A stretch of 64,000 bases of DNA from an uncultured Verrucomicrobiae bacterium (GCA_963765205.1 CAVXVB010000005.1:1-64000), one strand, 5' to 3'; shown: positions 42,543-63,098, counted from the first letter of the stretch. A program made the numbers and translations. Notes: generated by a model not told the origin, from the letters alone.

Positions 42543-44121
42543 GGCAATGTTGCCCAAATCCGGTCAACGGTGGCTTCAATCCGCAATGATGGCATGTAAG
42601 ATGCTGTATTGTAGGACATCATGATGGGAATAAACGATCCGCAGAAGCAACTGTTCAACTACAACGTGGATTTAGACCGTCGGGTGCGGCGGGACAATCC
42701 ACTGCGAGCAATCCGGGAGAAGATCGACTTTGCCTGGGTGCGCGACGAGGTGGCGCACTGCTACGGCTACAATGGGAACGAATCGGTGGACCCGGTCGTG
42801 ATTCTCAAGCTCCTATTTCTGCTTTTCTTCGATGCGGTGAAGAGTGAACGGGAGCTCATGCGCATTGTGCCGGAGCGGCTCGATTATCTATGGTTCCTGG
42901 GCTACGGTCTGGATGACGAGATTCCCGATCATAGCGTCTTGTCCAAGGCGCGGGCGCGCTGGGGCCGCGTGGTGTTCGAGCGACTGTTTGTCCGCACGGT
43001 TTCCCAGTGTGTGGCGCTGGGTCTGGTTGACGGCAAGAAGATCCACATGGACAGCAGCATGGTGGATGCGAACGCTGCGTATGAGTCCTTTGTGGTAACG
43101 TCGCCCGAGTTGGTCAACGCCCTGCGGGCCGCTTACGCGGTCGAGGAGTCCAAGTTTGAAATTGACGAGGAACGCCAATCCCGCCTGCCGAAAAACCGGA
43201 CCAGTTTTTGCCAGACCGATCCAGACGCCACCATTGCCGCCAAGGAGCGGTGCGGCGGCTATTCTGTCGCCAAACCGCGCTACAAAAGCCATCGGGTGGT
43301 GGATGACCAATGCGGCGTCATCACCGCCGTCGAGACCACGCCGGGACACATCTATGATGGGGCCTGCCTGGTGGCGCTGACCGAGCAGCATCACCTCACC
43401 ACCGGCATCGGCGCGCAGACGGTCGTGGCTGACCAGCATTATGGCACCCGCGAAAACATCCGGGCATTACAAGCGCAGGGCATCCGTACCCACATGAAGG
43501 TGATTCGCAACACTGGCCTGACGGACAAGAAAGGCATCTTTCACGCCAGTGACTTCAAGTATGAGCCAGCGACCGACACCTACCGATGTCCCGCCCAACA
43601 AACGCTAACGCGCCGCAGTTACGACCGGTTTCAGCGCGGCTGGCTCTTTCGGCCAGACGCGAGTGTGTGTCGCGCCTGTCCCATCCGGAACCAATGCACC
43701 ACGGCGCGATTGGATGCCCCAACCGGTCGCGTCATCGTTCACCCGGACGGCTACGAACTGGTGGTCAAAGGATGTGCGCAGGCCAACAGTCCCGAAGCCA
43801 AGCGCGACCGACGGCGGCGCATGACGCTGATTGAGGGCAGCTTTGGGCAGGCTTCACAAAACCATCACTTCAAACGCGCCCGCTGGCGGCGACTCTGGCG
43901 CCAGCGCATCCAAGATCACCTCATCGCCGCCGTGCAAAACGTCAAAAAGATACTCCGGCACGGGCCGGAGAACGGCAAATCGACCACAACCAACCCATAC
44001 CCGGCAAGTTCGCCACTTTTTTCGCCGCAGTCACTAACCCTGATCGGTTGGTTTAACAAAATCTTTGCCACACTCTCGCCCGGCTGGAACTGAGTCCGCA
44101 AATCATTCGGGCAACATTGCC
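42543..44121 (+). mobile_element. IS1182-family IS (transposase 42621-44093)
   Basis: 13-bp TIR GGCAATGTTGCCC, AGAA duplication; PDHSVLSKAR, MDSS, TDPDA, ADQHYG, IEGSFG. Confidence 0.92.
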
Positions 44122-44196
44122 AGAAGGTTGCCAAAAATCATGTTTTTTCTTGCATTTTTCAACATTTCAGTGCATCTTGTTTCCAGTTCTAAAACA

Positions 44197-45531
44197 TTAA
44201 CAATCAACTAAGTCCGCGTTATTGAACGACTTAGCTTCGCGGGGGAAATTAAGTTCGAGTCCCTGTTCTCCCACCACTTTCAAAATCGGACAGTCTTGGA
44301 CAACGAGGGACGGCAGTGGATAAACTGCCTCACTTTCAACGGGTTGCGAACCAGATGTTAAGTTTTGAGATTTTTTAGGATGGACATCGATTTCCTTCAA
44401 AACCCCCTTTTGACCACTTTTTAGTGGCTCAGGAAGTGAAACTGGCGCAAGGTTGGGGGTGCCAGCTTTGACGAGGTTTGCCAGCGTTTCGATGCCCTCC
44501 CGCAAGGGGAGTTGGGTGGCGTCGGTGTAGGTCACATCCGTCATCCGCAAGCTTTTGTGCCGGGCGAGTTGCATGATCACGCGGGAGTGAACGCCACGCT
44601 TTTGCAGGTGGCTGATGAAAGTCCGGCGAAAAGTATGAAATCCGGCAGCGCGCCCAAGGTCATCTTGATGCTGAATGCCCGCTTTGGCGAAGTCGCGATG
44701 CAGCGTTTCCATATTAGGCGCACCCTTCCAGAACACCCGAGTTTCGGGCTTGGCGAAGACCGGGCGAGCCGCACGAAACTCCGGCACCAGGTCTTTCAGG
44801 ATGGGAAGCCAGTCGGCCCGGCGGCTCTTGGTTGCCTCGGGGCGCAGGAACAGGCCCGGATTGTCGCCGTCCAGGCGGACATCGGCCCAAATCAAACGGC
44901 TGGCCTCTTTGTGGCGCAGGCCCGTTAAGGCCAAGAGACGATAGAAAAACCGACGGCGAGGCGCAGCCGCGTAGAGCCGGCTTAGCTCATCCTCAGTAAA
45001 TGCGCGGGGACCATCGGAGGACGGCTGCGGCACGCGCAGCTTTTGGAGGTGTTTGAGCGGGTTGGGGGTTTGATAGGTGCGTTCAGCCCAATTGAGAAAG
45101 ACGCGCATGGCGTCGAGGAAATGGTTTTGATAGCGAACGCTGAACCCGTGGTTCGAATTTCGCCAGTCGAGGAGGCTTTTTGGGGTTATATCGCTCAATG
45201 TCTTCCAGCGGCAGTATTTTACGATCTGCGGGAAGCGAAGCCGGAGATTGTTTAAGTAATCCACCGAAACCTCGGATTTGCGTTTCTCCTTCATGAATTC
45301 TTCAAACAATTCCAGGAGAGGCCGCTTCATGGCCGAACGAGTTACCTTGCCTGGGATCAGCCCGGCGTCTTCCTTCTGGGCGTCCTCGTAGGCTTCATTA
45401 AGGCGCTTTTCCGCGACCTCCTTGACGGTGGTATACAGCGCAACCTCGTGGATTTTGGGATTGTCGCCGACGCGGAAGCGGCCGCGGTATTCCCGGCGTT
45501 TGCCCTTTGGTTTGAGTAGAAATTTAAGCAT
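44197..45531 (-). CDS. Tyrosine integrase reading through the att site
   Basis: LTGLRHKE, ATKSRR, FHTFRRTF, LARHKSLRMTDVTY. Confidence 0.92.
   Translation of the reverse strand: MLKFLLKPKGKRREYRGRFRVGDNPKIHEVALYTTVKEVAEKRLNEAYEDAQKEDAGLIPGKVTRSAMKRPLLELFEEFMKEKRKSEVSVDYLNNLRLRFPQIVKYCRWKTLSDITPKSLLDWRNSNHGFSVRYQNHFLDAMRVFLNWAERTYQTPNPLKHLQKLRVPQPSSDGPRAFTEDELSRLYAAAPRRRFFYRLLALTGLRHKEASRLIWADVRLDGDNPGLFLRPEATKSRRADWLPILKDLVPEFRAARPVFAKPETRVFWKGAPNMETLHRDFAKAGIQHQDDLGRAAGFHTFRRTFISHLQKRGVHSRVIMQLARHKSLRMTDVTYTDATQLPLREGIETLANLVKAGTPNLAPVSLPEPLKSGQKGVLKEIDVHPKKSQNLTSGSQPVESEAVYPLPSLVVQDCPILKVVGEQGLELNFPREAKSFNNADLVDC
44253..44276 (+). other. att site (tRNA-Val 3' end copy)
   Basis: GTTCGAGTCCCTGTTCTCCCACCA, one mismatch to the tRNA. 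Confidence 0.9.
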
Positions 45532-45739
45532 AAGATTCACCTTTGCCTTTGGCGATTTGACGTTGGATGTATTTATGCACTTCCGAGGGCAGAACATGGC
45601 GGCCAGCCCCAATTTTGAAGCTGGGCAAATGGCCCTGGCTGATCAGGCGGCGAACCGTTTTGACGCTTTTACGCAGCAGTTTCGCCACCTCTGCTAGAGT
45701 AAGCGGCGGCTCAAAGTTGGTGGGAAGGGGAGTGTTCAT
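45524..45739 (-). CDS. Excisionase-like HTH protein
   Basis: LTLAEVAKLLRKSVKTVRRLISQGHLPSFKIG. Confidence 0.85.
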   Translation of the reverse strand: MNTPLPTNFEPPLTLAEVAKLLRKSVKTVRRLISQGHLPSFKIGAGRHVLPSEVHKYIQRQIAKGKGESYA

Positions 45740-46143: not shown

Positions 46144-46212
46144 CGTTTTTATACGATATTAAACAGTCCAGTCGCTTGCAAGCATAAATTTCATCTTTTT
46201 TACGCTCGGCCC

Positions 46213-46265
46213 GGTTGCCGGGTGGACCGCGAGCTCGCGGGGCGGCTACGTTCCACCCGGCAACC
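46213..46265. repeat. 14-bp inverted repeat with internal palindrome
   Basis: GGTTGCCGGGTGGA ... TCCACCCGGCAACC enclosing CCGCGAGCTCGCGG. Confidence 0.75.
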
Positions 46266-46276
46266 CTGCCTCGCTA

Positions 46277-46359
46277 TAGCCCGCCTGACGCAGACCGTGC
46301 ATTATATCGCAAATTGCCCTGGGCGACATAACGCACGGACTGCGCTTAACCGGCGGCTA
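46277..46359. repeat. Long imperfect palindrome, candidate terIS of the IS91 element
   Basis: TAGCCCGCC..GCAGACCGTGCATTATATCGC / GCGACATAACGCACGGACTGCG..GGCGGCTA. Confidence 0.55.
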
Positions 46360-46543
46360 AAACACTTTCCCTTGCCTTTGTGGCTGTGTTCCGTTGGCCT
46401 GATGACAGCCAATCTGTCCCTTGCCGCCTGCGGATTGCCGGTGCTTCGAGGAAATTGACGAGAGTGGATTCCTGGCCCCACGCGCGCTTCTTTGTGAATA
46501 ACTTCCGCTTGATTCATTAGATGCCCATTTGTTCACTTATAGA

Positions 46544-48108
46544 ATGGGGGCCAGTTATCGCGCCAGACGACCGCGGGCTTCGCCTTGGTGGCAATGCCTC
46601 CACGCCTGCCTTGGTGATTTTCTGGCTAACTATCCCACACACTACGAAAAGGCCTCTGGCCCCTTGCGCCCGGTTGTGGCGACCAGTCTGCGCGCTTTTC
46701 TGCGCTGCGGCGACCTCGCCCAAGGCTTTGCCCGCATCCGCTGTGCGGATTGCGCCCACGAATACCTGCTCCCTTCACCTGCAAGAAACGCGGCGCCTGC
46801 CCGTCCTGCCACCAACGGCGCAGCGTGGACGCCGCCCACGTCATCGCCGGCGAAATCTGCGCGCCCGTGCCGCACCGGCAGATCGTCCTGACCGTGCCCC
46901 GCGCCTTGCGCTGGCCCTTCCGGCGCCATCGTGAACACCTCGCCCTGCTCTTCGCCGCCGCGCACGAATCCCTCCTGCTCTGGTTGCGCGAACGCACCGG
47001 CCAGCCCGCCGGCCAAATCGCCACCATCGCCGGCCTCCACACCTTTGGCGATTACCTGGTCTTTCATCCCCACCTGCACATTCTCGCCGCCAACGGGGTG
47101 TTCGACGAATCCGGCGCCTTTCACCTCGCCCCCAGCGGAGGGGGAGCCGACCTCGCCGAACTCTTTCGCCATGCCATCCTGCGCCGGTTCGTGGACGCCG
47201 GCGTCATCGAAGCCTGGCAGGCGCACCGCTTCCTCTCCTGGCGGCACAGCGGTTTTCAAGTGGATGTCGGTGAAGCCCCCCTCGCCGCGGACGATGCCGC
47301 TGGCCGCCAACGCCTGGCCGAATACCTCCTGCGCGCTCCGCTCGCGCTGGACAAGATGCACTGGAACCCCGCCACCCGCTCCGTCCTCTACCGCTCCGCG
47401 CGCAGTTGGCATACCAAGCGCAACTATGAAATCTTCTCCGGGGCCGACTTCGTCGCCGCCCTCGCCGAACACATCCCCGAAAAATCCAACCAACTGATCC
47501 GTTACTATGGCCGCTACAGCAACAAATGCCGGGGCCGCGAGGCGAAGGCCACCGCCGCGCGCGCTCCCTGGGCTGGGGAACGGCCCGCGGCGGTCATTCC
47601 GCCAGCGCCCATCCGCCCCCGCCGACGCACGTGGCGCGCGCTCCTTATCCGCGTGTGGGGAACCGACCCGCTCCGCTGTCCCTGTTGCGGCGGCCAGATG
47701 CAAAATATTGGCCTCATCAAAAAACCCACGGCCATCCGCGATTGGCTCACCCGCCTCGGTCTCTGGGAAGGCATCAGCGCCATCCCTCCCGCCCACGCCC
47801 CGCCGCTGCCCGTCAAAACCATCCTCTGGGGCGTGGACACCTGGGACAGCCGCATCGTGGAATTTGAACCCGGCATGGAAATGGTTGGCCTGCCCGACCG
47901 CCACCGCCAGCACAAATCCCCCGGCGAGCGCTACCGCACCTACCCCCGCGAAGAATGGGACGAGCCGAGTCTGGAAACACACGAGGCCGACGAAAGCCAG
48001 GAGCAACCCTGGCAACCTCCGGCCCAACCGCGTGAAGGCGGCCTGCTCCTCATCTTTGATGGCGACCCGCCGCCCTCGGACGACCTCCCTGTCTTCTGGA
48101 CCGATTAG
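46544..48108 (+). mobile_element. IS91-family Y2 HUH transposase (one frameshift near 46770)
   Basis: LRCGDLAQGFARIRCADC / FTCKKRGACPSC zinc domain, HPHLH HUH motif, RYYGRYSN Y2 motif, C-terminal CPCCGG. Confidence 0.92.
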
Positions 48109-48549
48109 TCGAACCCCGGGTTGCGCCCAAAATCGTCGTCTCAACCCTGAGACGGAGGCGGAGCCAGGCTTGCCCACGGACAAATACCCTTGCCACCCGC
48201 TCACCAACTGCCCATTTTGCGAGCCATGAAGCGGCCATGCATGAAACGACGCTGCTGCAATCTTCATCCCGCTTTATTTGGGGGACTTAACGGGGCCTAT
48301 CCGTCCTCCCCCTTAACCCCCTCCCCCAAACCCAATCAACCCCAAAAGAGCAAATTCCTTTCAGTTTAACCCCCTCCCCCAAACCCAATCAACCCCAAAA
48401 GAGCAAATTCCTTTCAGTAATCAAGGTACTTTGGATGCAAACTGGGCCGGCCCGGATGACGCTGGAGATATTGATAGTGGTGCTTGTTAATATATGCTTT
48501 TTAAAAAAGAGTAAATGAATCCTTCGAATACCGATCTTTAAATCTGACC

Positions 48550-48876
48550 ATGGGCCCCACTTTTGCTTTTCTTGCCTTCCTGAACACCATGTCGCCATTC
48601 GTCGGCTCGATCTGGTGGGGCGCGAAAACAGGAGGGGTTCATGGCGCCTTGATCGGTTTGATTGTTGGATTGGGAATTGGTATAAGTAATTTTTTTGGGA
48701 TTAGAGCGATATACAAGATCTGGTGGCGTTGGTATTCGCGTTGCAGAGAAAAAAACGATTCGATGTATTGGCCTGAGAATGTAGGAAGGCTTTTGTTTAT
48801 TGGGTTATTTTTCTGGACGTTTGTATCCGGTCTTTTTGGACTGTTAATTACAACATTAGTGATTAACGCAGTTTGA
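48550..48876 (+). CDS. Low-GC membrane protein inside the 945-bp spacer
   Basis: Hydrophobic segments, AT-rich codons. Confidence 0.55.
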   Translation: MGPTFAFLAFLNTMSPFVGSIWWGAKTGGVHGALIGLIVGLGIGISNFFGIRAIYKIWWRWYSRCREKNDSMYWPENVGRLLFIGLFFWTFVSGLFGLLITTLVINAV

Positions 48877-49120
48877 AATGAACCCACGCGCCAACCATAA
48901 CTGGGACAACTACATCCAGAAGTCTAGCGGGAGCACGATGCTGGACCAGGACCGGGAGTCGTCGGTGTTCAACCAGTTGGTGGCGGTGTACAACACGGGG
49001 ACGCCGATAGACGTGGATTACGACGCGGGGGGGCACCTGATCCTCGCGCCGGCGGGCGGGAACTGGAGCACGCTTTTGGGCCTCATCTACGACGCGTAAA
49101 TGAACCCACGCGCCAACCAT
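48876..49120 (+). repeat. 23-bp direct repeat flanking a 199-bp high-GC insert
   Basis: AAATGAACCCACGCGCCAACCAT at 48876-48898 and 49098-49120. Confidence 0.9.
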
Positions 49121-49670
49121 GGCAGCGGAAGTGCCCCGTGCCACTTTCCAAGATCCGTGCCATTATTTTGCGTCACTGGGTCTAGCTTCTCGGTCGTGAA
49201 CCCATTCTTTTTTCAAATGCGAAGTGGACCTACGTCTGACTCAACACCCCAACGGCTTGCCCTCCTCGGACCGCTTGTCCCGGTGAACCACCCGCATACC
49301 CGGCGGCCTCTTTCATCCGCCGTGGCCCGGTCGAAATTGGTAGGGATGCGACTGCCCAAGCTATTAACCCCCTCCCCCAAACCCAATCAACCCCAAAAGA
49401 GCAAATTCCTTTCAGTTGACAAAGCGATTCCAGTGGACCCGAGACAGGCCGTTGACGGTTTCGCCGTCAAAGCCATCAATGTCGAGACCCGCCTGATAAC
49501 ATCGGTCACTGTAAGCCGCAGCCTCCGCTTCGCTTAACCCCCTCCCCCAAACCCAATCAACCCCAAAAGAGCAAATTCCTTTCAGTACCCGGATTCAGGA
49601 AAAATCCACCAGGAGAAACCAGTGAATGGCAATGGTTGACCAGCCGGGGCGGACATGCTAGGGTATCCGC

Positions 49671-49910
49671 ATGGACAAACGATACGCATACACCATTGAA
49701 TTGCATCCCGCCGAGGAGGGCGGTTACGTCGTGACTGTCCCGGCCTTGCCAGGCTGCCACACCCAGGGCGACACCTATGATGAAGCCCTTACGCACGCCG
49801 AGGAAGCCATCCAGGGTTTCATCGAGTTCCTTCAAAAGACCGGACGCCCTGTGCCGGTTGAAAACGAGCATCCATCCAAACTTCGCCTTGGAGTCAAGGT
49901 GGCCGCTTGA
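49671..49910 (+). CDS. hicB: HicB family antitoxin (orphan)
   Basis: EEGGYVVTVPALPGCHTQGDTYDEAL. Confidence 0.88.
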   Translation: MDKRYAYTIELHPAEEGGYVVTVPALPGCHTQGDTYDEALTHAEEAIQGFIEFLQKTGRPVPVENEHPSKLRLGVKVAA

Positions 49911-50124
49911 ATATTCAATAAACCCTCTTGTATTATCGGGAGTACCGCCGTATAAGGCGGATGAATTTATCGAAAGCCTTCGACCCCATGCCCGCAAGCA
50001 CTTAAATGCCAGCAGCTTATCGCTTCATAATCTTGGCAAGAAAGGCTTTCGGGCCCCTTTGGTTGGTAAGCATTTCGGATTCTAGCACTATTTTCTTTAG
50101 TAATTGAATTTGGCTGAATGCTTT

Positions 50125-50949
50125 ATGATATCTCGCATACTTTTGGGCATTTCTCTTGTCGCAGCGTTTGTCGTTGTGATTTGGTTAATTTGTAAGTTGC
50201 CATCTTCGGAACCCGTTAGAATCACCTCGATTGTCGCGGTTCCTCCCACCGTGTCACAGCCTAGCAACAACGCGTTTGCGATACCAATGCACCTTGTGTC
50301 CTCGATCGCACCGTCATCTGCTGCCGGTCCCAATAACGCGGTTTTATCGGCAGCCAGCCAGAAACCGATGACGGAACCCACTGTACCGATTCGATTTGCG
50401 GAGGGGCCGGCAGACGGCTCGGAACGAGTCATAGCCGCTGCGAAGGGAAGTGCTTGGATGCCTGTGAAAATCCCAACTGACAATTTGGTAGCCCGGCCTC
50501 CGCTTGCCTACTATCGCATGCAAACTAGATACGACGACTTGGAGGCTTTAACCCCGATGGGGTATTTCTATTTTGTCGAAAGTAATGGTAAGGTTGTCGC
50601 TATCGCCCGGATTAATAATGCCAGCGGGAGTGTATCGCCGTTTGGGGCAGCCAATGTAGATGAAATTCAATGGGCTAAAATAATTGACCAACTGGCAACG
50701 TTCGACCAGGTCAAAGGCGGCTCGTACGAAGTGCGCCTCCTGGCCATACCTACCCCAAATGTGTATTATCGCCAAACCTTCAACGTGCTCTGGCTTAAAT
50801 CCGATCCGGGCGGCACCGATCTCATTTACCAACTCCCCAACAGCGGTCTTTTGAGTTCACCCTACGGCGAGAAGCCGGGCACATTCTACAAGGCCGACGA
50901 TTTTCTAAAAATGATTCGACCTGCAACTGAACAGTTAGACAAAACTTAA
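50125..50949 (+). CDS. Membrane-anchored hypothetical protein, paralog A
   Basis: N-terminal TM; PIRFA, GSYEVRLL, WLKSDPGGTDLIY shared with the next ORF. Confidence 0.7.
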   Translation: MISRILLGISLVAAFVVVIWLICKLPSSEPVRITSIVAVPPTVSQPSNNAFAIPMHLVSSIAPSSAAGPNNAVLSAASQKPMTEPTVPIRFAEGPADGSERVIAAAKGSAWMPVKIPTDNLVARPPLAYYRMQTRYDDLEALTPMGYFYFVESNGKVVAIARINNASGSVSPFGAANVDEIQWAKIIDQLATFDQVKGGSYEVRLLAIPTPNVYYRQTFNVLWLKSDPGGTDLIYQLPNSGLLSSPYGEKPGTFYKADDFLKMIRPATEQLDKT

Positions 50950-50971
50950 ATGGATTAATCGAATTTCCACC

Positions 50972-51874
50972 ATGAAATTGCGCATTATTTTGGCTGTTAT
51001 TCTCATTGCCAGCATTGCTAGCGGCGTGGTTTGGTGGCTGGAGCAGTCCCCGGCTGCAGAACCCGAAAAAATAGCCGTCACTCTGAATTCCACCCTTGCG
51101 GCGTCAACGGGTAACTCTACGACCGTGATGCCCGCGCTCAAAGTAGTTGCGCCGGCCACTAGCGAGAATGTATCCTTGCCCGTCCCGTCGGGGATCAAGC
51201 GAGTAGTGATTGCGCCACCACCCATAATGGCCATTATGCCACCCGCAAATATAACCAGCATGCCAGCCAATAGTTTGGAAACGAACGCCACACGCACTGG
51301 ACCGATTCGATTTGCCGTTGCCCCCGTTAACGGCTCGGCGCTAGTCCTCAAGCGCTTGGCTTCAATGGGCACCGAGCCTCGGTACGCTGACCAACTGGGT
51401 GATCCGGCCAAACTGAAGTTGCTACCCCCGCTAGCCACCTATTATTTGCAGTTGAACTTGCTCGACCAAGGTGGCACCTTGGAGAGTGCAGCGCTATTGG
51501 AGGGATTTAATTATGTAGTCCTGTCCTCTGAGCAGGCATTTGCGAATGTAACCGTGGTTGCAAATAATTCTGGCAAAGCACAGAGCCTACGTATGTTGGC
51601 TACCGGCGCTAATATTGGGGACGTACCAAACGCCCTCGATCAACTGCGAATCCTCGACCAACTTCAGTCCGGGTCCTATGAAGCGCGACTCTTAAGTTCG
51701 CCGGGACTCTTCAGGGCGATCTGGCTCAAGTCCGACCCCGGCGGCTCCGATCTGATTTATATTGTCGCGCCCGCACCGCCGCTGGAAGCGGGGAAGTTGT
51801 ATACGGTAGAAGAATTTGTAAAAACTATCCTGATGATGTATCATGATCGTCAAAACCAGAACGGATTCGGTTGA
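50972..51874 (+). CDS. Membrane-anchored hypothetical protein, paralog B
   Basis: N-terminal TM; PIRFA, GSYEARLL, WLKSDPGGSDLIY. Confidence 0.7.
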   Translation: MKLRIILAVILIASIASGVVWWLEQSPAAEPEKIAVTLNSTLAASTGNSTTVMPALKVVAPATSENVSLPVPSGIKRVVIAPPPIMAIMPPANITSMPANSLETNATRTGPIRFAVAPVNGSALVLKRLASMGTEPRYADQLGDPAKLKLLPPLATYYLQLNLLDQGGTLESAALLEGFNYVVLSSEQAFANVTVVANNSGKAQSLRMLATGANIGDVPNALDQLRILDQLQSGSYEARLLSSPGLFRAIWLKSDPGGSDLIYIVAPAPPLEAGKLYTVEEFVKTILMMYHDRQNQNGFG

Positions 51875-51972
51875 GCAGGACACCGTCAAACGTGACAATT
51901 CGCCTTCCCGGTGGAACGGATTTCCCTTTGCGCATTGCAGGGGCGCTGGTTCGCGGGTAGGGTGGGGTGCTT

Positions 51973-52311
51973 ATGGCTTTGCTTAGTCTGCTCGATCTCG
52001 ACCTCTCGTTTGGCGGTCCGCTCATCCTGGACAAGGTCAACCTGCAGGCGGACCCCGGCGAGCGCGTGTGCCTCGTGGGGCGCAACGGCGCGGGCAAATC
52101 CACCTTGATGCGCGTCATCGCCGGCGAATTGGCCGCCGACTCCGGCTCGGTGTTCCGGCCCGACGGCTCCGTCGCCACCCGGCTGACCCAGGAGATTCCG
52201 ACCGACGTGCGCGGCACGGTCCACGACATCGTGGCGGCGGGCCTGCGCGACCCCGGCGGGCATGAGGAGGATTGGGAAAAGGACGTGCGCCTCGAAGACT
52301 TGCTCGCGCGC
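51973..52311 (+). pseudogene. 5' fragment of an ABC-F ATPase (Uup-like), cut by repeat copy 5
   Basis: LSFGGPLILD, ERVCLVGRNGAGKSTLMRVIAGE; host-like high GC; reads straight into the repeat. Confidence 0.88.
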
Positions 52312-52359
52312 TTAACCCCCTCCCCCAAACCCAATCAACCCCAAAAGAGCAAATTCCTT

Positions 52360-53382
52360 TCAGTAGTTAGTCCGCGCGCGTCTGACCCCATGCAGAAGTT
52401 CCCCAATGACAAAGCGATTCCAGTGGACCCGAGACAGGCCGTTGACGGTTTCGCCGTCAAAGCCATCAATGTCGAGACCCGCCTGATAACATCGGTCACT
52501 GTAAGCCGCAGCCTCCGCTTCGCTTTCAAAAATCAGGTAAGCACAGTCTTTCGGTGGCACCAGCCGGGGGGCGTAATCTATCATTTTTTTTCCCCACCTT
52601 CGCCCGAAAATTTCACGCATTCCTTCTTTGAAATTTGAGGTGATGCCAAGGGCGTTCGCCATCATGGCTTTTTGAATCTTGAACATCCGCGCGCCAGGAC
52701 TCTCCCACCGGAATGGCAGCATTTTCGCACGCGGGAATTTCCGGCCATAGTTGTAGCAGCGTGGCCGTCTCTGCTTGCCAACGGGAGGATCCTTCATTTG
52801 GGCTTTAGAAATGTAGTTCGAGATGTAGCCAGCCAGGTTGCCCGCCTTCCCGGGTCGGACAGGTTCAGCGAGCCAGCGACCAAGTCCACGGTATCGTCTC
52901 CCTGGCTTTTTTTTGCTGCACCAGGGTTTACGAACCGCTCGTTTCAGCGCATCGTGAACCTTCCTCATCGGTGTCCCACGAGGAACCGCCAAGTCGTAGA
53001 GCTTTTCCGCCTCACGATCAGGATGCCAGCGCAGCCGCTGCATCCGTTTTTTGTAGGCTTCCCAAGCGGCCCAGTTGAAACCCTCATTGAAGTCAATTCC
53101 ACGGGTGCTAAGGCCCACGCAATGGTCATGAACCCGGCCGTTTTGCTCGCCTTCTTCACGTGCACGGAAATAGCTCGTCAGGCCCATTTCTCCAAACAGG
53201 CCTGTCCTTACCCGGTTGAACACCTTGGACGCTTCCTCGTGGGTGGGAGGCCTGGTGGCACCGCCTTCCTGGACATCCAAGTAAGTGAAGGTGGCCACCA
53301 AGGCGGACCGGAAGAGGTTCACGGCCGTTTCGATGTTCTCGATGTTGGCTGCCCTGGACTTTACCTGGTAAGTCGAGCTCAC
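52360..53382 (-). CDS. Rolling-circle replication initiator (HUH, two-Tyr type); stop supplied by the repeat
   Basis: Motif I ATFTY, motif II EEGEQNGRVHDH, motif III YISNYISK. Confidence 0.82.
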   Translation of the reverse strand: MSSTYQVKSRAANIENIETAVNLFRSALVATFTYLDVQEGGATRPPTHEEASKVFNRVRTGLFGEMGLTSYFRAREEGEQNGRVHDHCVGLSTRGIDFNEGFNWAAWEAYKKRMQRLRWHPDREAEKLYDLAVPRGTPMRKVHDALKRAVRKPWCSKKKPGRRYRGLGRWLAEPVRPGKAGNLAGYISNYISKAQMKDPPVGKQRRPRCYNYGRKFPRAKMLPFRWESPGARMFKIQKAMMANALGITSNFKEGMREIFGRRWGKKMIDYAPRLVPPKDCAYLIFESEAEAAAYSDRCYQAGLDIDGFDGETVNGLSRVHWNRFVIGELLHGVRRARTNY

Positions 53383-53444: not shown

Positions 53445-53499
53445 GGCCGTCGTCGGGCCGGGGGACGCGCGTAGCGCGTCCCCCGGCCCGACGACGGCC
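53445..53499. other. Perfect 26-bp-stem hairpin, candidate rolling-circle origin
   Basis: GGCCGTCGTCGGGCCGGGGGACGCGC-GTA-reverse complement; adjacent CCTTGTAAG on the minus strand. Confidence 0.6.
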
Positions 53500-57289: not shown

Positions 57290-58411
57290 CTAATGCGCCT
57301 CGCCCAGGTGTTTCAATTCGCGGTTCATCGCCGTCTTCAATTCGGTCTCGGTCGGCAAATGCAATTGGTAACGGCTCGTGAAAATCTTATTCTTCTGCTC
57401 GGGGCCAAGGGTGTATTTAACGACCGCATCGTTCTTGTCCGTGCACAGCACCAGCCCGAGGGTTGGGTTGTCGCCTGCCGTGCGAACCTCGCGGTCGAAG
57501 TAGTTTACATAAAGCTGGAGCTGGCCCAGATTTTCATGGGTGAGCTTTGCCACTTTCAAGTCCACCACCACATAGCACTTCAAAATTGTATGGTAGAAAA
57601 CGAGGTCAATATAGAAGTGGTCGCCATCGAGAGTGATGCGCTTCTGACGGGCAACAAAGGCAAATCCTTTGCCAAGTTCCAAAAGGAACGTTTGAAGGTT
57701 ATTGATGAGCGCCGTTTCAAGGTTGGCCTCAACGAGGCGCGGCGATTCCGGCAAGCCGAGGAATTCAATTACCATCGGGTCTTTGAAGAGATCCGCTGGC
57801 TGTTGGATTTCCTGGCCCTTAGTAGCGAGTTCAAGCACCCCGGCCTTGTCCTTGCTCTTTGACACCCGCTCAAACAGCAAACTGGCTATCTGTCGCTCAA
57901 GTTCACGGGCTGACCATGCGTTGGTCACGGCTTCTATTTCGTAGAAATTCCGTGTATTCACCGATTCGACCCGGAGTAACACCCGATATAGCGACCAAGA
58001 CAAAGAGGGGTGCCATTGGCCGGGTCGCCAAGATTGGTTACACACTGTGTAACCGATCTCAGTTTCGGTCGTTGCGGGCAGAGCATGGGCCGATTGGTTA
58101 CACAGTGTGTGACCAATCTGGCCTAACTGGAAACGCGGGTAATTGAGGTAGAATTGGCGGAAGAGTTTCAAATTGGTCGTGCTATAGCCTTGCGCAAACT
58201 CCTTCTGGAGCCGGACGGACAAGTCGGCTATGACTTTGTCGCCGTAGTTCGTTCCGTGAGCGCCCTTTTGCTCTTCCTCGACGATTTGTTGACCGATGAG
58301 CCAATTGGCCGCCACTTGGGCGGAATTGACCGACCGGGCAACCCCGGCCTGTGCTGATGCCAGGATGCGCCGGACTCGTTCAAAGATGGGGGAATGCTTG
58401 GTAGTGTTCAT
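57290..58411 (-). CDS. YhcG/DUF1016 PDDEXK nuclease family
   Basis: NWLIGQQIVEEEQ, KDPMVIEFL, FLLELGKGFAFVARQ, IDLVFYH, GQLQLYVNYFD. Confidence 0.92.
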   Translation of the reverse strand: MNTTKHSPIFERVRRILASAQAGVARSVNSAQVAANWLIGQQIVEEEQKGAHGTNYGDKVIADLSVRLQKEFAQGYSTTNLKLFRQFYLNYPRFQLGQIGHTLCNQSAHALPATTETEIGYTVCNQSWRPGQWHPSLSWSLYRVLLRVESVNTRNFYEIEAVTNAWSARELERQIASLLFERVSKSKDKAGVLELATKGQEIQQPADLFKDPMVIEFLGLPESPRLVEANLETALINNLQTFLLELGKGFAFVARQKRITLDGDHFYIDLVFYHTILKCYVVVDLKVAKLTHENLGQLQLYVNYFDREVRTAGDNPTLGLVLCTDKNDAVVKYTLGPEQKNKIFTSRYQLHLPTETELKTAMNRELKHLGEAH

Positions 58412-58503
58412 GGGAATTCAGGTGTTACAAGGCGCAAGTGCGCCCATACCCTGCTCTCCCCGTCAACTGGACCGGATTTCCATAGTCGGCCAATTGGCCG
58501 GAC

Positions 58504-58959
58504 TCATCCGATAAGTCCGGCGTCGCGGAAGCTATAAAAGCCCCTCCCTGAGGGGTCGTCGTCCTGGTGGCCGATGACGATATGGTCTAACAACTCGATA
58601 CCGATAATCTTGGATGCTTCATTCAATTGTCGCGTCACCTCCAAGTCGGCAGAACTTGGCGAAGGGTCGCCACTAGGATGATTGTGAACACACACTATGG
58701 CGGCGGCTGACGCCAATATCGCGATTCGGAATACCTCCCGAGGATGCGCCAGCGTTGAGGTAGCCGTTCCCAGCGTCACGCGGTTTCGGCAAATTGGCCG
58801 ATGCTTCCGATTAAGGCATACCACGTAAAAGCTCTCCTGCAAGGGAGCATCGTCGAAAGCTCCCCTCATGTATTCGACAATTCCCGGTGGGGTGTTGGTC
58901 ATCTCCTGATGACTGGTTCTTACCACCGTGTATTGAATGCTTGCTTCATAAACTTGCAT
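58504..58959 (-). CDS. RadC-like JAB domain protein
   Basis: HPREVF, HNHPSGDPSPS..D, LLDHIVIG. Confidence 0.92.
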   Translation of the reverse strand: MQVYEASIQYTVVRTSHQEMTNTPPGIVEYMRGAFDDAPLQESFYVVCLNRKHRPICRNRVTLGTATSTLAHPREVFRIAILASAAAIVCVHNHPSGDPSPSSADLEVTRQLNEASKIIGIELLDHIVIGHQDDDPSGRGFYSFRDAGLIG

Positions 58960-59217
58960 AGTTGGTGCGAAATCGCGCCAGTTCCGGTTCCGGCAACGTG
59001 CCGGGTTATCCAGTCAGCCCGATCTCGCCTCCATGGTCACGCCAAGGCAAAGCGCGCCCGGCCAAGTGGCCGGGCGCGCGTGGTGGAGGCGACGAAGGAG
59101 CACTACCTTGCCTGGCGTGATAAAATGGGGCGACAGAGGGCAGGCCCAGGCGGTTCAATTCAGTTGGCTAACTTTGCTCTCGCCTCGGATAGGCACCGTT
59201 AACGTGCCCACTGGACA

Positions 59218-59613
59218 TTAACTGTGTAGGGCCAGTTCTTTTTGGGCGGGGCTAAGCCATCTTACAAAGCGCTCAAATACCTCCCGTTGGTTATCGTTGA
59301 TTAGCGAGTCTCGTCCTCTGACTCCGTCCGCCACTTTTCTTTCCAAAGCCAATTTACCGGTATCCAAGGCTTCCTCGCGGGTCGCATAACTTTCATATTT
59401 CCCGGTTAACGGGCCGCCGTGGCCGGCGTAATTCCCGGTGTGGTAGGCATGTTCAGTTGCCATAATCCATCGTCCATTTTGGAGCCGGGTCACATGGATT
59501 TCTGCGGACAGGTATTTGTCTTTAAACGAAAGCACCTCGACCTGTTCGCGGTCAACGAATTCGTCACATGATTGCAGCAAATGCTGAGTATCTTCATTGG
59601 TGGATTGGTTCAT
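59218..59613 (-). CDS. Hypothetical protein
   Basis: 131-aa ATG ORF. Confidence 0.55.
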   Translation of the reverse strand: MNQSTNEDTQHLLQSCDEFVDREQVEVLSFKDKYLSAEIHVTRLQNGRWIMATEHAYHTGNYAGHGGPLTGKYESYATREEALDTGKLALERKVADGVRGRDSLINDNQREVFERFVRWLSPAQKELALHS

Positions 59614-60326
59614 GGGATCATGCGCCCGTGCGAACCCCGTCCGGGCTTCCTTGCCCGGTTATCAAGGCGCACTCCGCGCGCTGAACCGCGCAGTCACGCC
59701 TCGCCACCGACAAGGCCGCCGAGCGAGGAGCCTTGTTGCTCCTCGCGAGGGGGAAGGACGAAGGAGGGAATGGAGGAGCGCAGCGCAGCGAGAACTCCAT
59801 GGCGGGCGTGACAAAATGGGGCAGCGAGCGGAGGCGGGGCATTCTATTCAATTCATCTTTTCGTGGATGTCGCCCGATGTCGGTTTTGGTCTGTGTCCAT
59901 ATCGCATCAATTTGCGCCATTTTGCCAGGCTCAACGGGAGTCTCGGGCTGCGAGGCGCGGAGCCGGGCCGGAAGCCATAAGCTGCCGCCAAGTGGCGGCG
60001 AGCGGTGGCGGACGGCGGCGGAAGTGACTCGCGCCCGGGTCTCCCGGTCAGTGCCAGATTCATTCCGTCTGCTTCACGAGGGCGCGCCGATTAAGCGAAG
60101 CGCGGCGCGTTGTCGTGAGCGTCGGAATGGACGCAACTGCGAATGGCCGCCAAGTCCACTTTGAGCAGGCGATACCCTGCCCGGTTGACGGCGTTCCTTG
60201 GGTAACGGCGGGCGTCACTTACGCAACCTGAAACCTTACGCGAAGCGTTAAGGAGTAGGGCGTCCCCCTGAAAGAAAACGCGACTGCGCTTTCGTAACTA
60301 AACACTGCAAGTCAGACTTTATTGCC

Positions 60327-63098
60327 ATGTTAAGTCCCAAAGCACAGCTAAATCTAAAGAGCGCTAAAGAATACTTTCGCGAACATCTGGACGTGGGTGA
60401 CTACTATGCCGAGGGTCAAAAGGTGAAAGGCGAATGGTTCGGGATTGGGGCTGAAAAGCTGGGTCTGAAAGGAGTCGTCAAGGAAGCTGAATTTATAGCC
60501 TTGTGCGATGGATTGCACCCGCAGACAGGTGAGCAATTGACGGTACGGAAGAATACGAATCGGCGTAACGCTGATGGCCGGACAATGGCGAATCGGCGGG
60601 TATTCTATGACTTCACGATTAGTCCGCCAAAGTCGGTGTCGGTGGTCGCACTTTTGCAAGATGACCGGATTGTGGGGCTGCATAATGAGGCGGTGAAAAT
60701 GGCGATGTTGGAACTGGAAAAGTTCGGCGCAACGAGAGTGCGGAAGGCCGGACAGCGTTGCGATAGAGCGACCGGGAATGTGGTGGTGGCGGCGTTCCGG
60801 CATGACACCAGCCGCGAACTTGATCCGCACTTGCATACCCATTGCGTGGTGCTAAACGCCACCTTTGACCAGGTGGAAAATCGTTGGAAGGCATTGGAAG
60901 TATCGGGAATGTATCGGGCGCAAAAGTTGGCCGAAAACCTCTATTACCATGAACTCGCCAAGGGCCTGCGGGCGCTCGGCTATGAAATCGAATCCAACGC
61001 TCGTGACTTTGAAATCAAGAATGTTCTGGCCAACGTCATTACGACGTTTTCCAAGCGGAATCAGCAAATAAGCGAAGAAACCCGAAAGCGGGTAGAAGCC
61101 GAAGGGCTGAGGGGTAACGTCAAGGAGGTCAGAGAACAGGTAGCTCGGGACGAGAGAAGGCGGAAGATCAAGGATTCGACGGCCAGCAATTTGCGTCCAA
61201 TGTGGGGAAAGCAACTGACGAAATCCGATCAAGCCTCTTTGGATGCCTTGCGGATGGTCTCGCCGCGACCCTTGGAAAGAACCGATTTGAACAATGTTGT
61301 TGCCTGGGCGGATGAACACCTTTTTGAGCGGCGCTCGGTCGTGAATGACTATGAATTGATGGCTACGGCGTTGGCGCATGGACGCGGACAAGATTTTGAT
61401 TTGGCCTCATTACGGTCGGCCATTGAAGGTCGTGGCTATGTCCGCGAAGCGGGCACACATAAGCTCACGTCTCGCGACATGCTACGCTGCGAATATGGTA
61501 TCGTGGTAGCCGCTCGCGATGGGCGCGGCATGGAAATGGCGCTAAATCCAAGTTACCCTCCGGCTTCCGCATTGTCGCGGGAACAAGCGACGGCGGTGAA
61601 AAGGATTCTCAATAGTCGGGATTTTATCACTTTGTTTCGGGGCAGCGCGGGCACTGGCAAAAGCTTTACCTTGCGTGAGGTGACACAGGGAATTCAGGCC
61701 GCTGGTCTGCCCGTGGTCGTATTGGCCCCGCAACGTCAGCAAGTGGCCGATTTGTGCGCCGATGGCCTTGCTGCGGACACTCTCGCACATTGCCTGCTTA
61801 CGAAAACATTGCCACGTCGCGCCGTGGTGCTCGTGGATGAGGCGGGTCAGATTGGAGGAAAGCAAATGAATTTGCTGATTACCTTGGTGAAGGCTCACAA
61901 TGGCCGTTTAATTCTGTCCGGTGACACGCGGCAGCATGGCGCGGTTCAAGCTTCGGATGGGTTGCGAGCCATCGAGAAATTCAGTGGATTAAGGGCGGCG
62001 GTGCTGCGGGATATTCGGCGGCAAAATCCGGCACTGGCAAAATCGGCCAGGGAACGAGCCTTCGTGACTGGATACCGACAGGCGGTTAAGGCGGCTGCGT
62101 CCGGGTTCGTCGGTGAATCTTTCGACCGCCTTGATGGGCTGGGCTGCATAGTCGAAACGACGCCGGACGAGCGCCGTGAGATGCTGGCGCGGGAATACCT
62201 CGCCAGCCTTGACCGCAAGGAACGTACTTTAGTTGTGGCGCAAACGTGGACTGAGGTAAACGCGGTGAACGAGGCCATCCGTGAACAAATGAGGATGAGC
62301 GAAAAATTGAGCGGCGGCACGACACTCACCGCCTATCAGGCGGTGGATGCCACTGAGGCGCAGAAGCGCGAGGCCAGTTTCTACCAGGTCGGTCAACACG
62401 CTTATTTCTTTCGACGGTATGGGCGTTTTACCAAGGGTGATCTCTGTCTCGTTGCCGGCGCAAATGAACATGGCGTTGTGCTAATCAAGAATGGGCGGCG
62501 GTCAACCGTGAGCTATCGTTACGCCAATAGATTTTCGATAACCACTGAAAGGGAATTGGAGGTGGCCTTGGGTGATCGCCTGCAATTGAAGTTTAATGGC
62601 GAGTCGAAAGAAGGACAGGTGATAAACAACGGCGAACTGGTGACCGTCCGCCGTGTGCGCAAGAACGGCTCGCTAGTGGTCGAGGACGATGTCGGGATGC
62701 GGAAAACGCTCTCCCCCGCCCAAAGAATGTTCAACCGTGGATATGCGGTCACCTCCTACGCCTCACAAGGCAAGACGGTTGACACGGTACTGATTTCCGA
62801 TGCGGGCTCCCGCATGGCAACGAACCGCAACCAATGGTATGTCGCCATCTCGCGTGGGCGAAAACGGGTGATGGTTTTCACGGATAACAAGGCGGATTTG
62901 CGAGCCAACATCGAGCAAAGTGGCGACCGGAGCCTTGCCTTGGAAATGAAACTCCCCGTTGGGCTGTCGGTTGCCAAAGAAGTGCGCGCGTGGCTCCCGG
63001 AGTTATCGCAACAGGCCATGTGTGACCAAGCCCAGCGGCATGAGGCCATCATGCAGTTGACTAATCAATCTACGGTGCATCCAAAAATTTCTATATGA
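60327..63098 (+). CDS. MobF (TrwC/TraI-like) relaxase-helicase
   Basis: GDYY, DFTISPPKSVS, HDTSRELDPHLHTH, GSAGTGKS, VDEAG, YAVTSYASQGKT. Confidence 0.95.
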   Translation: MLSPKAQLNLKSAKEYFREHLDVGDYYAEGQKVKGEWFGIGAEKLGLKGVVKEAEFIALCDGLHPQTGEQLTVRKNTNRRNADGRTMANRRVFYDFTISPPKSVSVVALLQDDRIVGLHNEAVKMAMLELEKFGATRVRKAGQRCDRATGNVVVAAFRHDTSRELDPHLHTHCVVLNATFDQVENRWKALEVSGMYRAQKLAENLYYHELAKGLRALGYEIESNARDFEIKNVLANVITTFSKRNQQISEETRKRVEAEGLRGNVKEVREQVARDERRRKIKDSTASNLRPMWGKQLTKSDQASLDALRMVSPRPLERTDLNNVVAWADEHLFERRSVVNDYELMATALAHGRGQDFDLASLRSAIEGRGYVREAGTHKLTSRDMLRCEYGIVVAARDGRGMEMALNPSYPPASALSREQATAVKRILNSRDFITLFRGSAGTGKSFTLREVTQGIQAAGLPVVVLAPQRQQVADLCADGLAADTLAHCLLTKTLPRRAVVLVDEAGQIGGKQMNLLITLVKAHNGRLILSGDTRQHGAVQASDGLRAIEKFSGLRAAVLRDIRRQNPALAKSARERAFVTGYRQAVKAAASGFVGESFDRLDGLGCIVETTPDERREMLAREYLASLDRKERTLVVAQTWTEVNAVNEAIREQMRMSEKLSGGTTLTAYQAVDATEAQKREASFYQVGQHAYFFRRYGRFTKGDLCLVAGANEHGVVLIKNGRRSTVSYRYANRFSITTERELEVALGDRLQLKFNGESKEGQVINNGELVTVRRVRKNGSLVVEDDVGMRKTLSPAQRMFNRGYAVTSYASQGKTVDTVLISDAGSRMATNRNQWYVAISRGRKRVMVFTDNKADLRANIEQSGDRSLALEMKLPVGLSVAKEVRAWLPELSQQAMCDQAQRHEAIMQLTNQSTVHPKISI

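Follow-up and report, generated by a model that had tools for sequence, protein, structure and literature searches.

According to PMC13181058, insertion sequences (ISs) of the IS91 family transpose from oriIS to terIS; 82 bp of the right end of IS91 are enough for ori function, termination is leaky and fails in 18 to 53% of events, and a single-stranded circle of the bottom strand is the working intermediate. For IS801, Bardaji et al. (2011; PMC3189936) describe right-end fragments of 229, 360, and 679 nucleotides (nt) as experimentally mobile, with ends at GAAC, GGAC, CAAG, CGAC, and GCAC, and have the element carrying along 290 to 1431 nt from its left as well. IS91 and ISCR elements are held responsible for assembling resistance and virulence clusters, and how DNA reaches the origin side is still argued. 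One-ended rolling-circle transposition has been put forward for ISCR elements too. Here, we report an IS91-family IS trailed by an array of identical 53-nt units in a 64,000-nt stretch of DNA (hereafter, the window) from an uncultured Verrucomicrobiae bacterium (GCA_963765205.1, CAVXVB010000005.1:1-64000). On balance, we favor reading the locus as the IS plus four solo ori ends, made by one-ended rolling-circle transposition and re-inserted at ori junctions.

The 53-nt unit (TTAACC...TTTCAGT; in full, TTAACCCCCTCCCCCAAACCCAATCAACCCCAAAAGAGCAAATTCCTTTCAGT) has five exact copies on the plus strand, at 48313 to 48365 (unit 1), 48366 to 48418 (unit 2), 49364 to 49416 (unit 3), 49534 to 49586 (unit 4), and 52312 to 52364 (unit 5), all located by pattern match. 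The gaps between successive units are 0, 945, 117, and 2725 bp. Pattern search and shuffles thus confirmed the original prediction of five mismatch-free units with these spacers; the chance expectation was 0 matches (100 shuffles, up to three mismatches). Unit 1 is the right end of the IS, unit 2 stands in direct tandem with it, and units 2 to 5 are solos, with unit 5 placed between an ABC-F ATPase gene fragment and the 3' end of a Rep-like gene. The array had been placed 205 bp from the transposase; the close downstream spacing stands, the exact value being 204 nt from the transposase stop (48108) to unit 1. In the whole genome (G000; 4.02 Mb in 12 contigs, of which the window's contig, C5, is 690 kb long), just these five copies were found at up to three mismatches, together with about 11 more diverged unit-like sequences. 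Several of the latter are solos, with similarity beginning exactly at TTAACCC and unrelated DNA on the left, and three same-strand pairs lie 0.5 to 3.5 kb apart. Two diverged solos at C9:1414395-1419123 each stand 125 to 170 bp ahead of a copy of an unrelated 1031-bp IS, which has at least eight nearly identical copies in the genome.

The unit is best understood from comparison with other IS copies. A second copy of the IS on contig C9 and a relic on C4 both finish with a unit of 84% similarity, and homologous IS-internal sequence lies ahead of it, as at unit 1. Between the C5 and C9 copies the unit diverges in step with the IS (84% and 85% identity, respectively). The unit end (AAAAGAGCAAATTCCTTTCA) is located 247 nt after the tnpA stop; on plasmids, ISVsa3/ISCR2 (L106) and another IS91-family element (L105) have GAAAAGGGCGTTT..CTTCCTATAC 226 to 242 nt past theirs, and the ori motif AAAAG..GC..TTCCT is common to all. 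The likeness to oriIS given in the original prediction is supported, because motif and spacing match in direct comparison with these two elements. At 53 to 83 nt across lineages, the units are of about the same order as the 82-bp functional right end of IS91. From these comparisons, the unit is the minimal ori end of the IS itself.

The inner edge of the unit is fixed. In six lineage types it reads 0 to 1 nt, then TAAC, GAAC, CAAC, GCAC, or AGAC, then CCCC, and within the IS a CCCCC run precedes it; in the window, the units have the inner edge CCCCC|TTAACCCCC and the outer end TTTCAGT|. Units of one locus are 98 to 100% identical to the IS-linked unit, and length varies (53 to 83 nt) between lineages. 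The postulated ori-only mini-elements do exist, as solos with a fixed inner edge, in this genome and in relatives. The sequences that follow the units vary (TTAA, AATC, TGAC, ACCC, AGTT, TTTT, and others). Unit ends of other lineages often have terminal tandem duplications of about 12 to 13 and 31 nt, or (CAGT)n-like runs; at L066, L067, L073, and L077, (CAGT)4-6, (CATT)n, or AGC repeats sit exactly at the outer ends of the units. Short tandem runs in this position would fit repeated nicking and rejoining with slippage. Folding z-scores of the units were not significant on either strand (unit and left-end tests together, -1.57 to +1.70), Rfam at permissive thresholds (41 to 57 kb) and a tRNA scan gave no relevant match, and the exact 28-nt unit end had 0 matches in metagenome contigs. 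Runs of G in the bottom strand might allow a quadruplex.

The IS copy is 1955 bp long (46411 to 48365, plus strand); its left end is the putative terIS, and its right end, oriIS, is unit 1. Its left end (AATCTGTCCC) was set by alignment with the second copy (G000:C9:231179-229413, minus strand; 85% DNA identity), an alignment that reaches the unit and that moves the start of the element from 46277, where it had been put originally, to 46411. The left terminus AATCT is common to IS copies of another lineage (L067 and L071). The C9 copy is flanked by ...CCATCTTG on the left and TTTTTTCT... on the right, with no direct repeat and hence no target-site duplication. Within the left-end (terIS-side) region (46411 to 46543, plus strand), an imperfect 9-nt palindrome could be read from the sequence (GTGAATAAC, 46494 to 46502; TTTGTTCAC, 46528 to 46536); its predicted fold was no better than shuffles (z = +0.46 and -0.03), and the stretch from about 46493 is kept both in a C8 relic and in the copies from G009, a second species of the genus. 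A repeat search of the window found no inverted repeat joining the two IS ends.

The transposase gene tnpA (46544 to 48108, plus strand) encodes a Y2 HUH transposase, recognized from translations and Pfam by its HPHLH and RYYGRY motifs, a Y2_Tnp match (2.4e-16), and a match to the end of Zn_Tnp_IS91. A 1-nt deletion at 46770/46771 shifts its frame (CTGCT-CCCTTC in the window versus CTGCTGCCCTTT in the C9 copy). Contigs from run X1, which cover most of the window, also lack the extra base, and related ISs in two unrelated soil and peat runs have it; the local gene is therefore a pseudogene. The C9 paralogue is intact (open frame of 569 to 572 amino acids [aa]; protein 83% identical) and exceeds the cut-off of the NCBIfam IS91 equivalog model NF033538 (146 bits against 125), with Pfam matches to Y2_Tnp (4.9e-16) and Zn_Tnp_IS91 (7.5e-16). 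Identity to annotated IS91, ISVsa3 (ISCR2), and ISCR1 transposases is 23 to 26% (tblastn), and the ISCR clade Ia model NF052416 scored 138 bits against a cut-off of 925, which places the protein outside that clade. The transposase belongs to the IS91 family, as had been predicted.

Two of the spacer pieces could be traced to intact sources. The end of spacer C (51882 to 52311, plus strand) is a 5' fragment of an ABC-F ATPase gene, with about 91 bp of upstream sequence and codons 1 to 113 of 605. Its 430 window bases are 98.4% identical (431-bp alignment) to G000:C10:29950-29520, where the gene is intact (605 aa). The left edge of unit 5 is precisely where the homology ends, at position 48 of 137 of the Pfam ABC_tran profile. 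Orthologues in other species of the family are only 72 to 80% identical to the fragment, which argues for an origin in this species, possibly in another strain. In the native gene, 9 nt past the fragment end (C10:29519-29500), the sequence TGAACCCCCACC closely resembles the left terminus of the units; this likeness may reflect a preferred target, a cue for recombination, or chance.

Spacer B (49417 to 49533, plus strand; 117 bp) is an exact copy (100%) of 52407 to 52523, an internal piece of the Rep-like gene in antisense. That gene (52365 to 53382, minus strand) is a 340-aa open reading frame (ORF) with a Pfam REP_ORF2-G2P match below the cut-off (3.1e-5). Four full-length homologues (60 to 67% identical) continue as ...RRAPIERNSAA where the window has ...RRARTNY*; by comparison with them, the 42 bp from unit 5 to 52407 are native coding sequence, and unit 5 removes roughly the last 4 to 8 codons. 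The native continuation of spacer B is TTTCAAAAATC, yet spacer C opens with ACCCGG. A perfect inverted repeat immediately upstream of the Rep-like gene (53445 to 53499; 26-nt arms, 3-nt loop) could be a replication origin or terminator of a Rep-bearing element; Rfam gave only chance miRNA-like matches to it.

Spacer A (48419 to 49363, plus strand) begins with AATC, the left-end tetranucleotide of the IS, holds small ORFs, and ends within a gene of a multi-copy family named here for its start, MNPRANH. Matches to this family in this and related genomes all end at 49362 to 49364, the left edge of unit 3. Two adjacent ORFs (48876 to 49363) both begin with an identical 23-nt sequence (AAATGAACCCACGCGCCAACCAT, MNPRANH...), and members of the family are present on C9 and C11 and in several related genomes. 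The main part of spacer C (49587 to 51881, plus strand) contains a HicB-like antitoxin gene (49671 to 49910; Pfam HicB_lk_antitox, 1.2e-13) starting 85 bp past unit 4, with no recognizable HicA partner, and two paralogous genes (50104 to 50949 and 50972 to 51874). The paralogues (281 and 300 aa) each have an N-terminal hydrophobic stretch, and searches of Pfam, NCBIfam, and the genomes of the family found no relative of either. No match to the main part was found elsewhere in the genome or in nine family genomes. At its junction with the ABC-F fragment (51881/51882), a TTGAG..G microhomology is present and a unit is absent. Units 3, 4, and 5 each lie between noncontiguous pieces of DNA. The original prediction that spacers are cut mid-gene holds for all three pieces, namely the ABC-F fragment ending at unit 5, spacer B inside the Rep-like gene, and spacer A ending within the family gene; its proposal to map each spacer to an intact source succeeded for the ABC-F piece (C10) and the Rep-like piece (52407 to 52523) and failed for the main part of spacer C.

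A transposase-anchored scan of one genome per species gave 51 loci (49 in Verrucomicrobiota, 1 in an unclassified uncultured bacterium, and 1 in Opitutales). A polarity census used the 18 of these in which the locus's own ori end is visible and followed by at least 2 kb. Homologous transposases do carry such arrays: at 12 of the 18 loci (10 genomes), one or two more same-strand copies of the terminal 55 to 83 nt, 98 to 100% identical, lie 238 to 5538 bp downstream, and the remaining 6 have no downstream copy. Upstream copies were found at 0 of the 12 loci having at least 7.4 kb of upstream sequence. Exceptions to this polarity are direct junctions of a unit with a 5'-truncated IS (L087 and L097), a unit 392 nt ahead of a truncated IS (L081), and inverted copies (L088 and G009:C109). 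The second species of the genus, G009, has 19 matches to the unit core against 0 in reversed-pattern controls, among them IS-linked units trailed by an identical solo at a distance of 935 or 1480 bp and two solos separated by 1400 bp; two of its pairs recur in independent metagenome contigs with the spacings of 935 and 1400 kept. A degenerate unit pattern hit eight short metagenome contigs, all of the G009 type. In run X5, a peat metagenome, the unit at window position 48325 is covered by five contigs (summed depth, 122) with a C>T variant and the transposase body by only one (depth, about 14), an imbalance suggesting that units there stand in many more contexts than the IS has copies.

In other lineages, ordinary complete genes occur in the spacers, for example a LeuC-like aconitase, a sulfatase, and an ECF sigma/FecR pair. 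At L094, a block of 5'-truncated IS, unit, sulfatase, and unit replaces other DNA of the closest relative, with flanks 90 to 94% identical; among 30 relatives, none has an orthologue of the sulfatase above 45% identity. A search of relatives for unoccupied sites met flanks that were not conserved or matches that were scattered (41 genomes with L060 and 26 with L080). Pfam searches on both halves around the joins revealed no family spanning a join, and a unit-removal open-frame test was non-discriminating in GC-rich DNA (median minimum of 96 codons for random versus 64.5 for chimeric joins).

Solo ori ends, captured left flanks, and 5'-truncated copies suggest one-ended rolling-circle movement. 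Under the reading we favor, rolling-circle transposition would begin at a nick beside the ori end and proceed leftwards, and an early stop at a ter-like tetranucleotide 53 nt in (TTAAC plus the C run) would yield a 53-nt ori-only mini-element, comparable to the 229- to 679-nt right-end "miniature" fragments of IS801. A solo would be an origin without a proper terminator, and later rounds started there would therefore run into and pick up the DNA on its left, giving modules of captured DNA and unit; the modules of gene fragment and unit would be one-ended products started at solo units. Products of any length would tend to re-enter directly after a resident ori end, and arrays would therefore grow on the ori side in a single orientation. 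Three features that coincide exactly with the nick site suggest re-insertion after a resident origin end: units 1 and 2 in tandem, the junctions of a unit with a truncated IS, and the terminal partial duplications. Each of the captured pieces (ABC-F, Rep, and family gene) adjoins the left edge of a unit, and spacer A opens with the left-end tetranucleotide of the IS, both as this reading would have it. We infer the order of events, the re-insertion at ori junctions, and capture driven by the transposase rather than by recombination.

Several observations weigh against this reading. The window tnpA is frameshifted, and the intact paralogue has units of only 84% identity; with the local gene dead, further movement would need the paralogue in trans. 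No conserved tetranucleotide of the GTTC/CTTG type follows the units in the window, among the genome's solos, in G009, or in other lineages, and with the unit's last GT taken as target, GTTN is merely common there. Left ends of the modules are only partly ter-like (AATC, TGAC, ACCC, and CACC). Rolling-circle movement is replicative, though no donor solo lies in the intact ABC-F gene (C10) or at 52523/52524 of the Rep-like gene, and the donors must therefore have been other strains or lost lineages. In translations, neither the left flank of the IS nor the other spacer ends give a recognizable continuation of the Rep-like frame; a simple version in which everything inserted at one target therefore fails. 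Spacers are not shared between IS copies of one genome (CBDBEZ loci and G009 loci), contrary to the shared proximal spacers that had been anticipated, and the complete ordinary genes in spacers of other lineages could equally be native flank. The long-range order of the array is as assembled, since contigs at k=31 break at every unit.

Parts of the evidence also bear on a different sequence of events, that of the original prediction, in which a 53-nt mini-element lands downstream in local DNA, the next round starts from the outermost ori and carries the flank, and the array becomes a chronological record; we regard it as doubtful. The downstream same-strand polarity at 12 of 18 related loci and the complete ordinary genes in their spacers speak for it, and the L094 block looks as expected had it moved from its outer ori. 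In the window itself the record fails: the flanks of units 3, 4, and 5 are not contiguous and the ABC-F fragment adjoins the Rep-like gene, and the inner units are therefore not simple landings in former flank. Because no spacer is common to IS copies of one genome, inherited composites cannot explain the polarity either. Landing only downstream would further call for a mechanism, which this model does not offer. A GC-skew orientation test of fork-coupled polarity had 6 of 9 loci one way, opposite to prediction.

Host recombination may have contributed to the layout of the window, and a fuller version would have solos scattered by transposition and the mosaic then built by homologous or illegitimate recombination between 53-bp units and IS ends, in the chromosome and in the circular form of an integrative and conjugative element (ICE). 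The order unit 3, B, unit 4, C, unit 5, 42 bp, B is that expected from a circle of 42 bp, B, unit 4, C, and unit 5 integrating through the 117-bp homology B. The unit-less junction at 51881/51882 has its TTGAG..G microhomology, the region is ICE-like (integrase, 44197 to 45612; TrwC relaxase, 60327 to 63095), and Bardaji et al. (PMC3189936) ascribe most IS801 fragments in finished Pseudomonas syringae genomes to reorganization rather than to one-ended transposition. This version is nonetheless unlikely as a full account: it leaves unexplained the one-sided polarity, the tandem units 1 and 2, and, in relatives, the 12- to 31-nt terminal duplications and the junctions of unit and truncated IS at the exact nick site, and 53 bp is short for RecA-dependent exchange.

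Very improbable, in our judgment, is that the 53-nt unit is an independent repeat or preferred target, with the IS inserted at its left edge and the solos as empty sites. IS-linked units and solos do have the same left edge, always after the IS-internal CCCCC run. Against this, the unit diverges together with the IS (84% versus 85%), the IS91/ISCR ori motif is present in its outer end, as far from tnpA as is usual, the units of any one locus match the IS-linked one at 98 to 100% identity while lineages range from 53 to 83 nt, and the exact unit is found nowhere else in the genome. An assembly artefact that stitched flanks of several IS copies or strains through the repeated end is scarcely credible, for all that the source is a soil metagenome, that k=31 contigs break at every unit, and that one run X2 contig joins 52364 to 52407 (which may be a mere path through the repeat), given that a 53-nt repeat is shorter than any read and leaves triples of left flank, unit, and right flank directly readable, that the genome is in 12 contigs with 690 kb in the window's contig, and that the same architecture is present in 10 other genomes and in independent metagenome contigs.

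The array lies at the edge of an ICE-like region, with a DDE transposase and a tyrosine integrase on the left (42621 to 45612) and RadC, a YhcG nuclease, and a TrwC relaxase-helicase on the right (57293 to 63095). The integrase has a generic Phage_integrase match and lies 0.8 kb upstream of the IS on the opposite strand; it was considered as a part of the element and rejected, the integrases beside the two IS copies being unrelated (21% identity). Left of the IS, an imperfect hairpin with 22-nt arms (46202 to 46279; 86% complementary) recurs at 94 to 95% identity on C2:121241-121317 and C9:828820-828866.

The locus and its relatives offer a minimal origin with a defined inner cut (GAAC-like plus a C run), identical copies within a locus, a downstream same-strand order, and traceable spacers. 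This material gives substrates for asking whether ori ends alone are mobilized in trans, where they are terminated, and whether they are re-inserted at resident ori junctions, and the behavior extends widely through an environmental phylum, well away from the clinical context in which ISCR was described. As a tentative extension with some chance of holding, the minimal 53- to 83-nt origin would be a self-contained capture module mobilized in trans, its outer nick serving as start and preferred re-integration point and its inner edge as a built-in terminator, and arrays would be directional stacks of captured DNA plus origin. If so, the stacks could hold DNA from earlier hosts of the carrying ICE and, with an integron-like point of growth, would parallel in bacteria the capture of gene fragments by Helitrons.

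Among described systems, IS801 is like the window in its transposase-less ori fragments, which run from ori to a left-end-like internal tetranucleotide, and in carrying DNA from its left (290 to 1431 nt), by the account in PMC3189936. Its experimentally mobile right-end fragments (229 to 679 nt) also run counter to the view, taken in the original prediction, that such elements normally do not multiply ori. Unlike those of IS801 in that account, the fragments in the window are just 53 nt long (53 to 83 nt in relatives), have one dominant conserved inner edge, and form same-strand arrays directly downstream of the parent IS, with activity deduced here from sequence. ISCR1 and ISCR2 (= ISVsa3) have a homologous transposase (23 to 26% identity) and the same ori-end motif and geometry; the oriIS-side region of ISCR elements is variable and gene-bearing (PMC6218425), and composite and tandem structures are known for ISCR2 (PMC7722449). 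The window differs in that its transposase falls outside clade Ia (138 bits versus 925), its cargo consists of gene fragments and ordinary genes of soil Verrucomicrobiota rather than resistance genes, and what is repeated is a uniform minimal ori end instead of ISCR copies that are whole or truncated to varying extents. With IS91 it shares an oriIS end, probably a distinct terIS end, and, at the C9 copy, the absence of a target duplication; according to PMC13181058, IS91 needs CTTG or GTTC next to oriIS, a conserved flank that the window units do without, and no orf121-like gene was seen upstream of the window tnpA.

The likeness to an integron that had been suggested does not extend to the machinery, as there is no IntI-type integrase with attI/attC sites and the units show no significant fold or Rfam match. 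Helitrons are eukaryotic rolling-circle HUH transposons that acquire gene fragments when termination fails; they represent another branch of the protein family, with a helicase fusion, and capture occurs at the 3' terminator side of one element, not by multiplied origin ends. A non-exhaustive literature search returned neither a paper connecting IS91 to Verrucomicrobia nor any account of minimal ori ends arranged in directional arrays. The locus is a tidy natural example of a known gene-shuffling mechanism, multiplication of origin ends and capture of gene fragments by the IS91 family, and not a new system. It is well preserved and unusually regular, attached to a decayed parent IS, and typical of a clade of Verrucomicrobiota.

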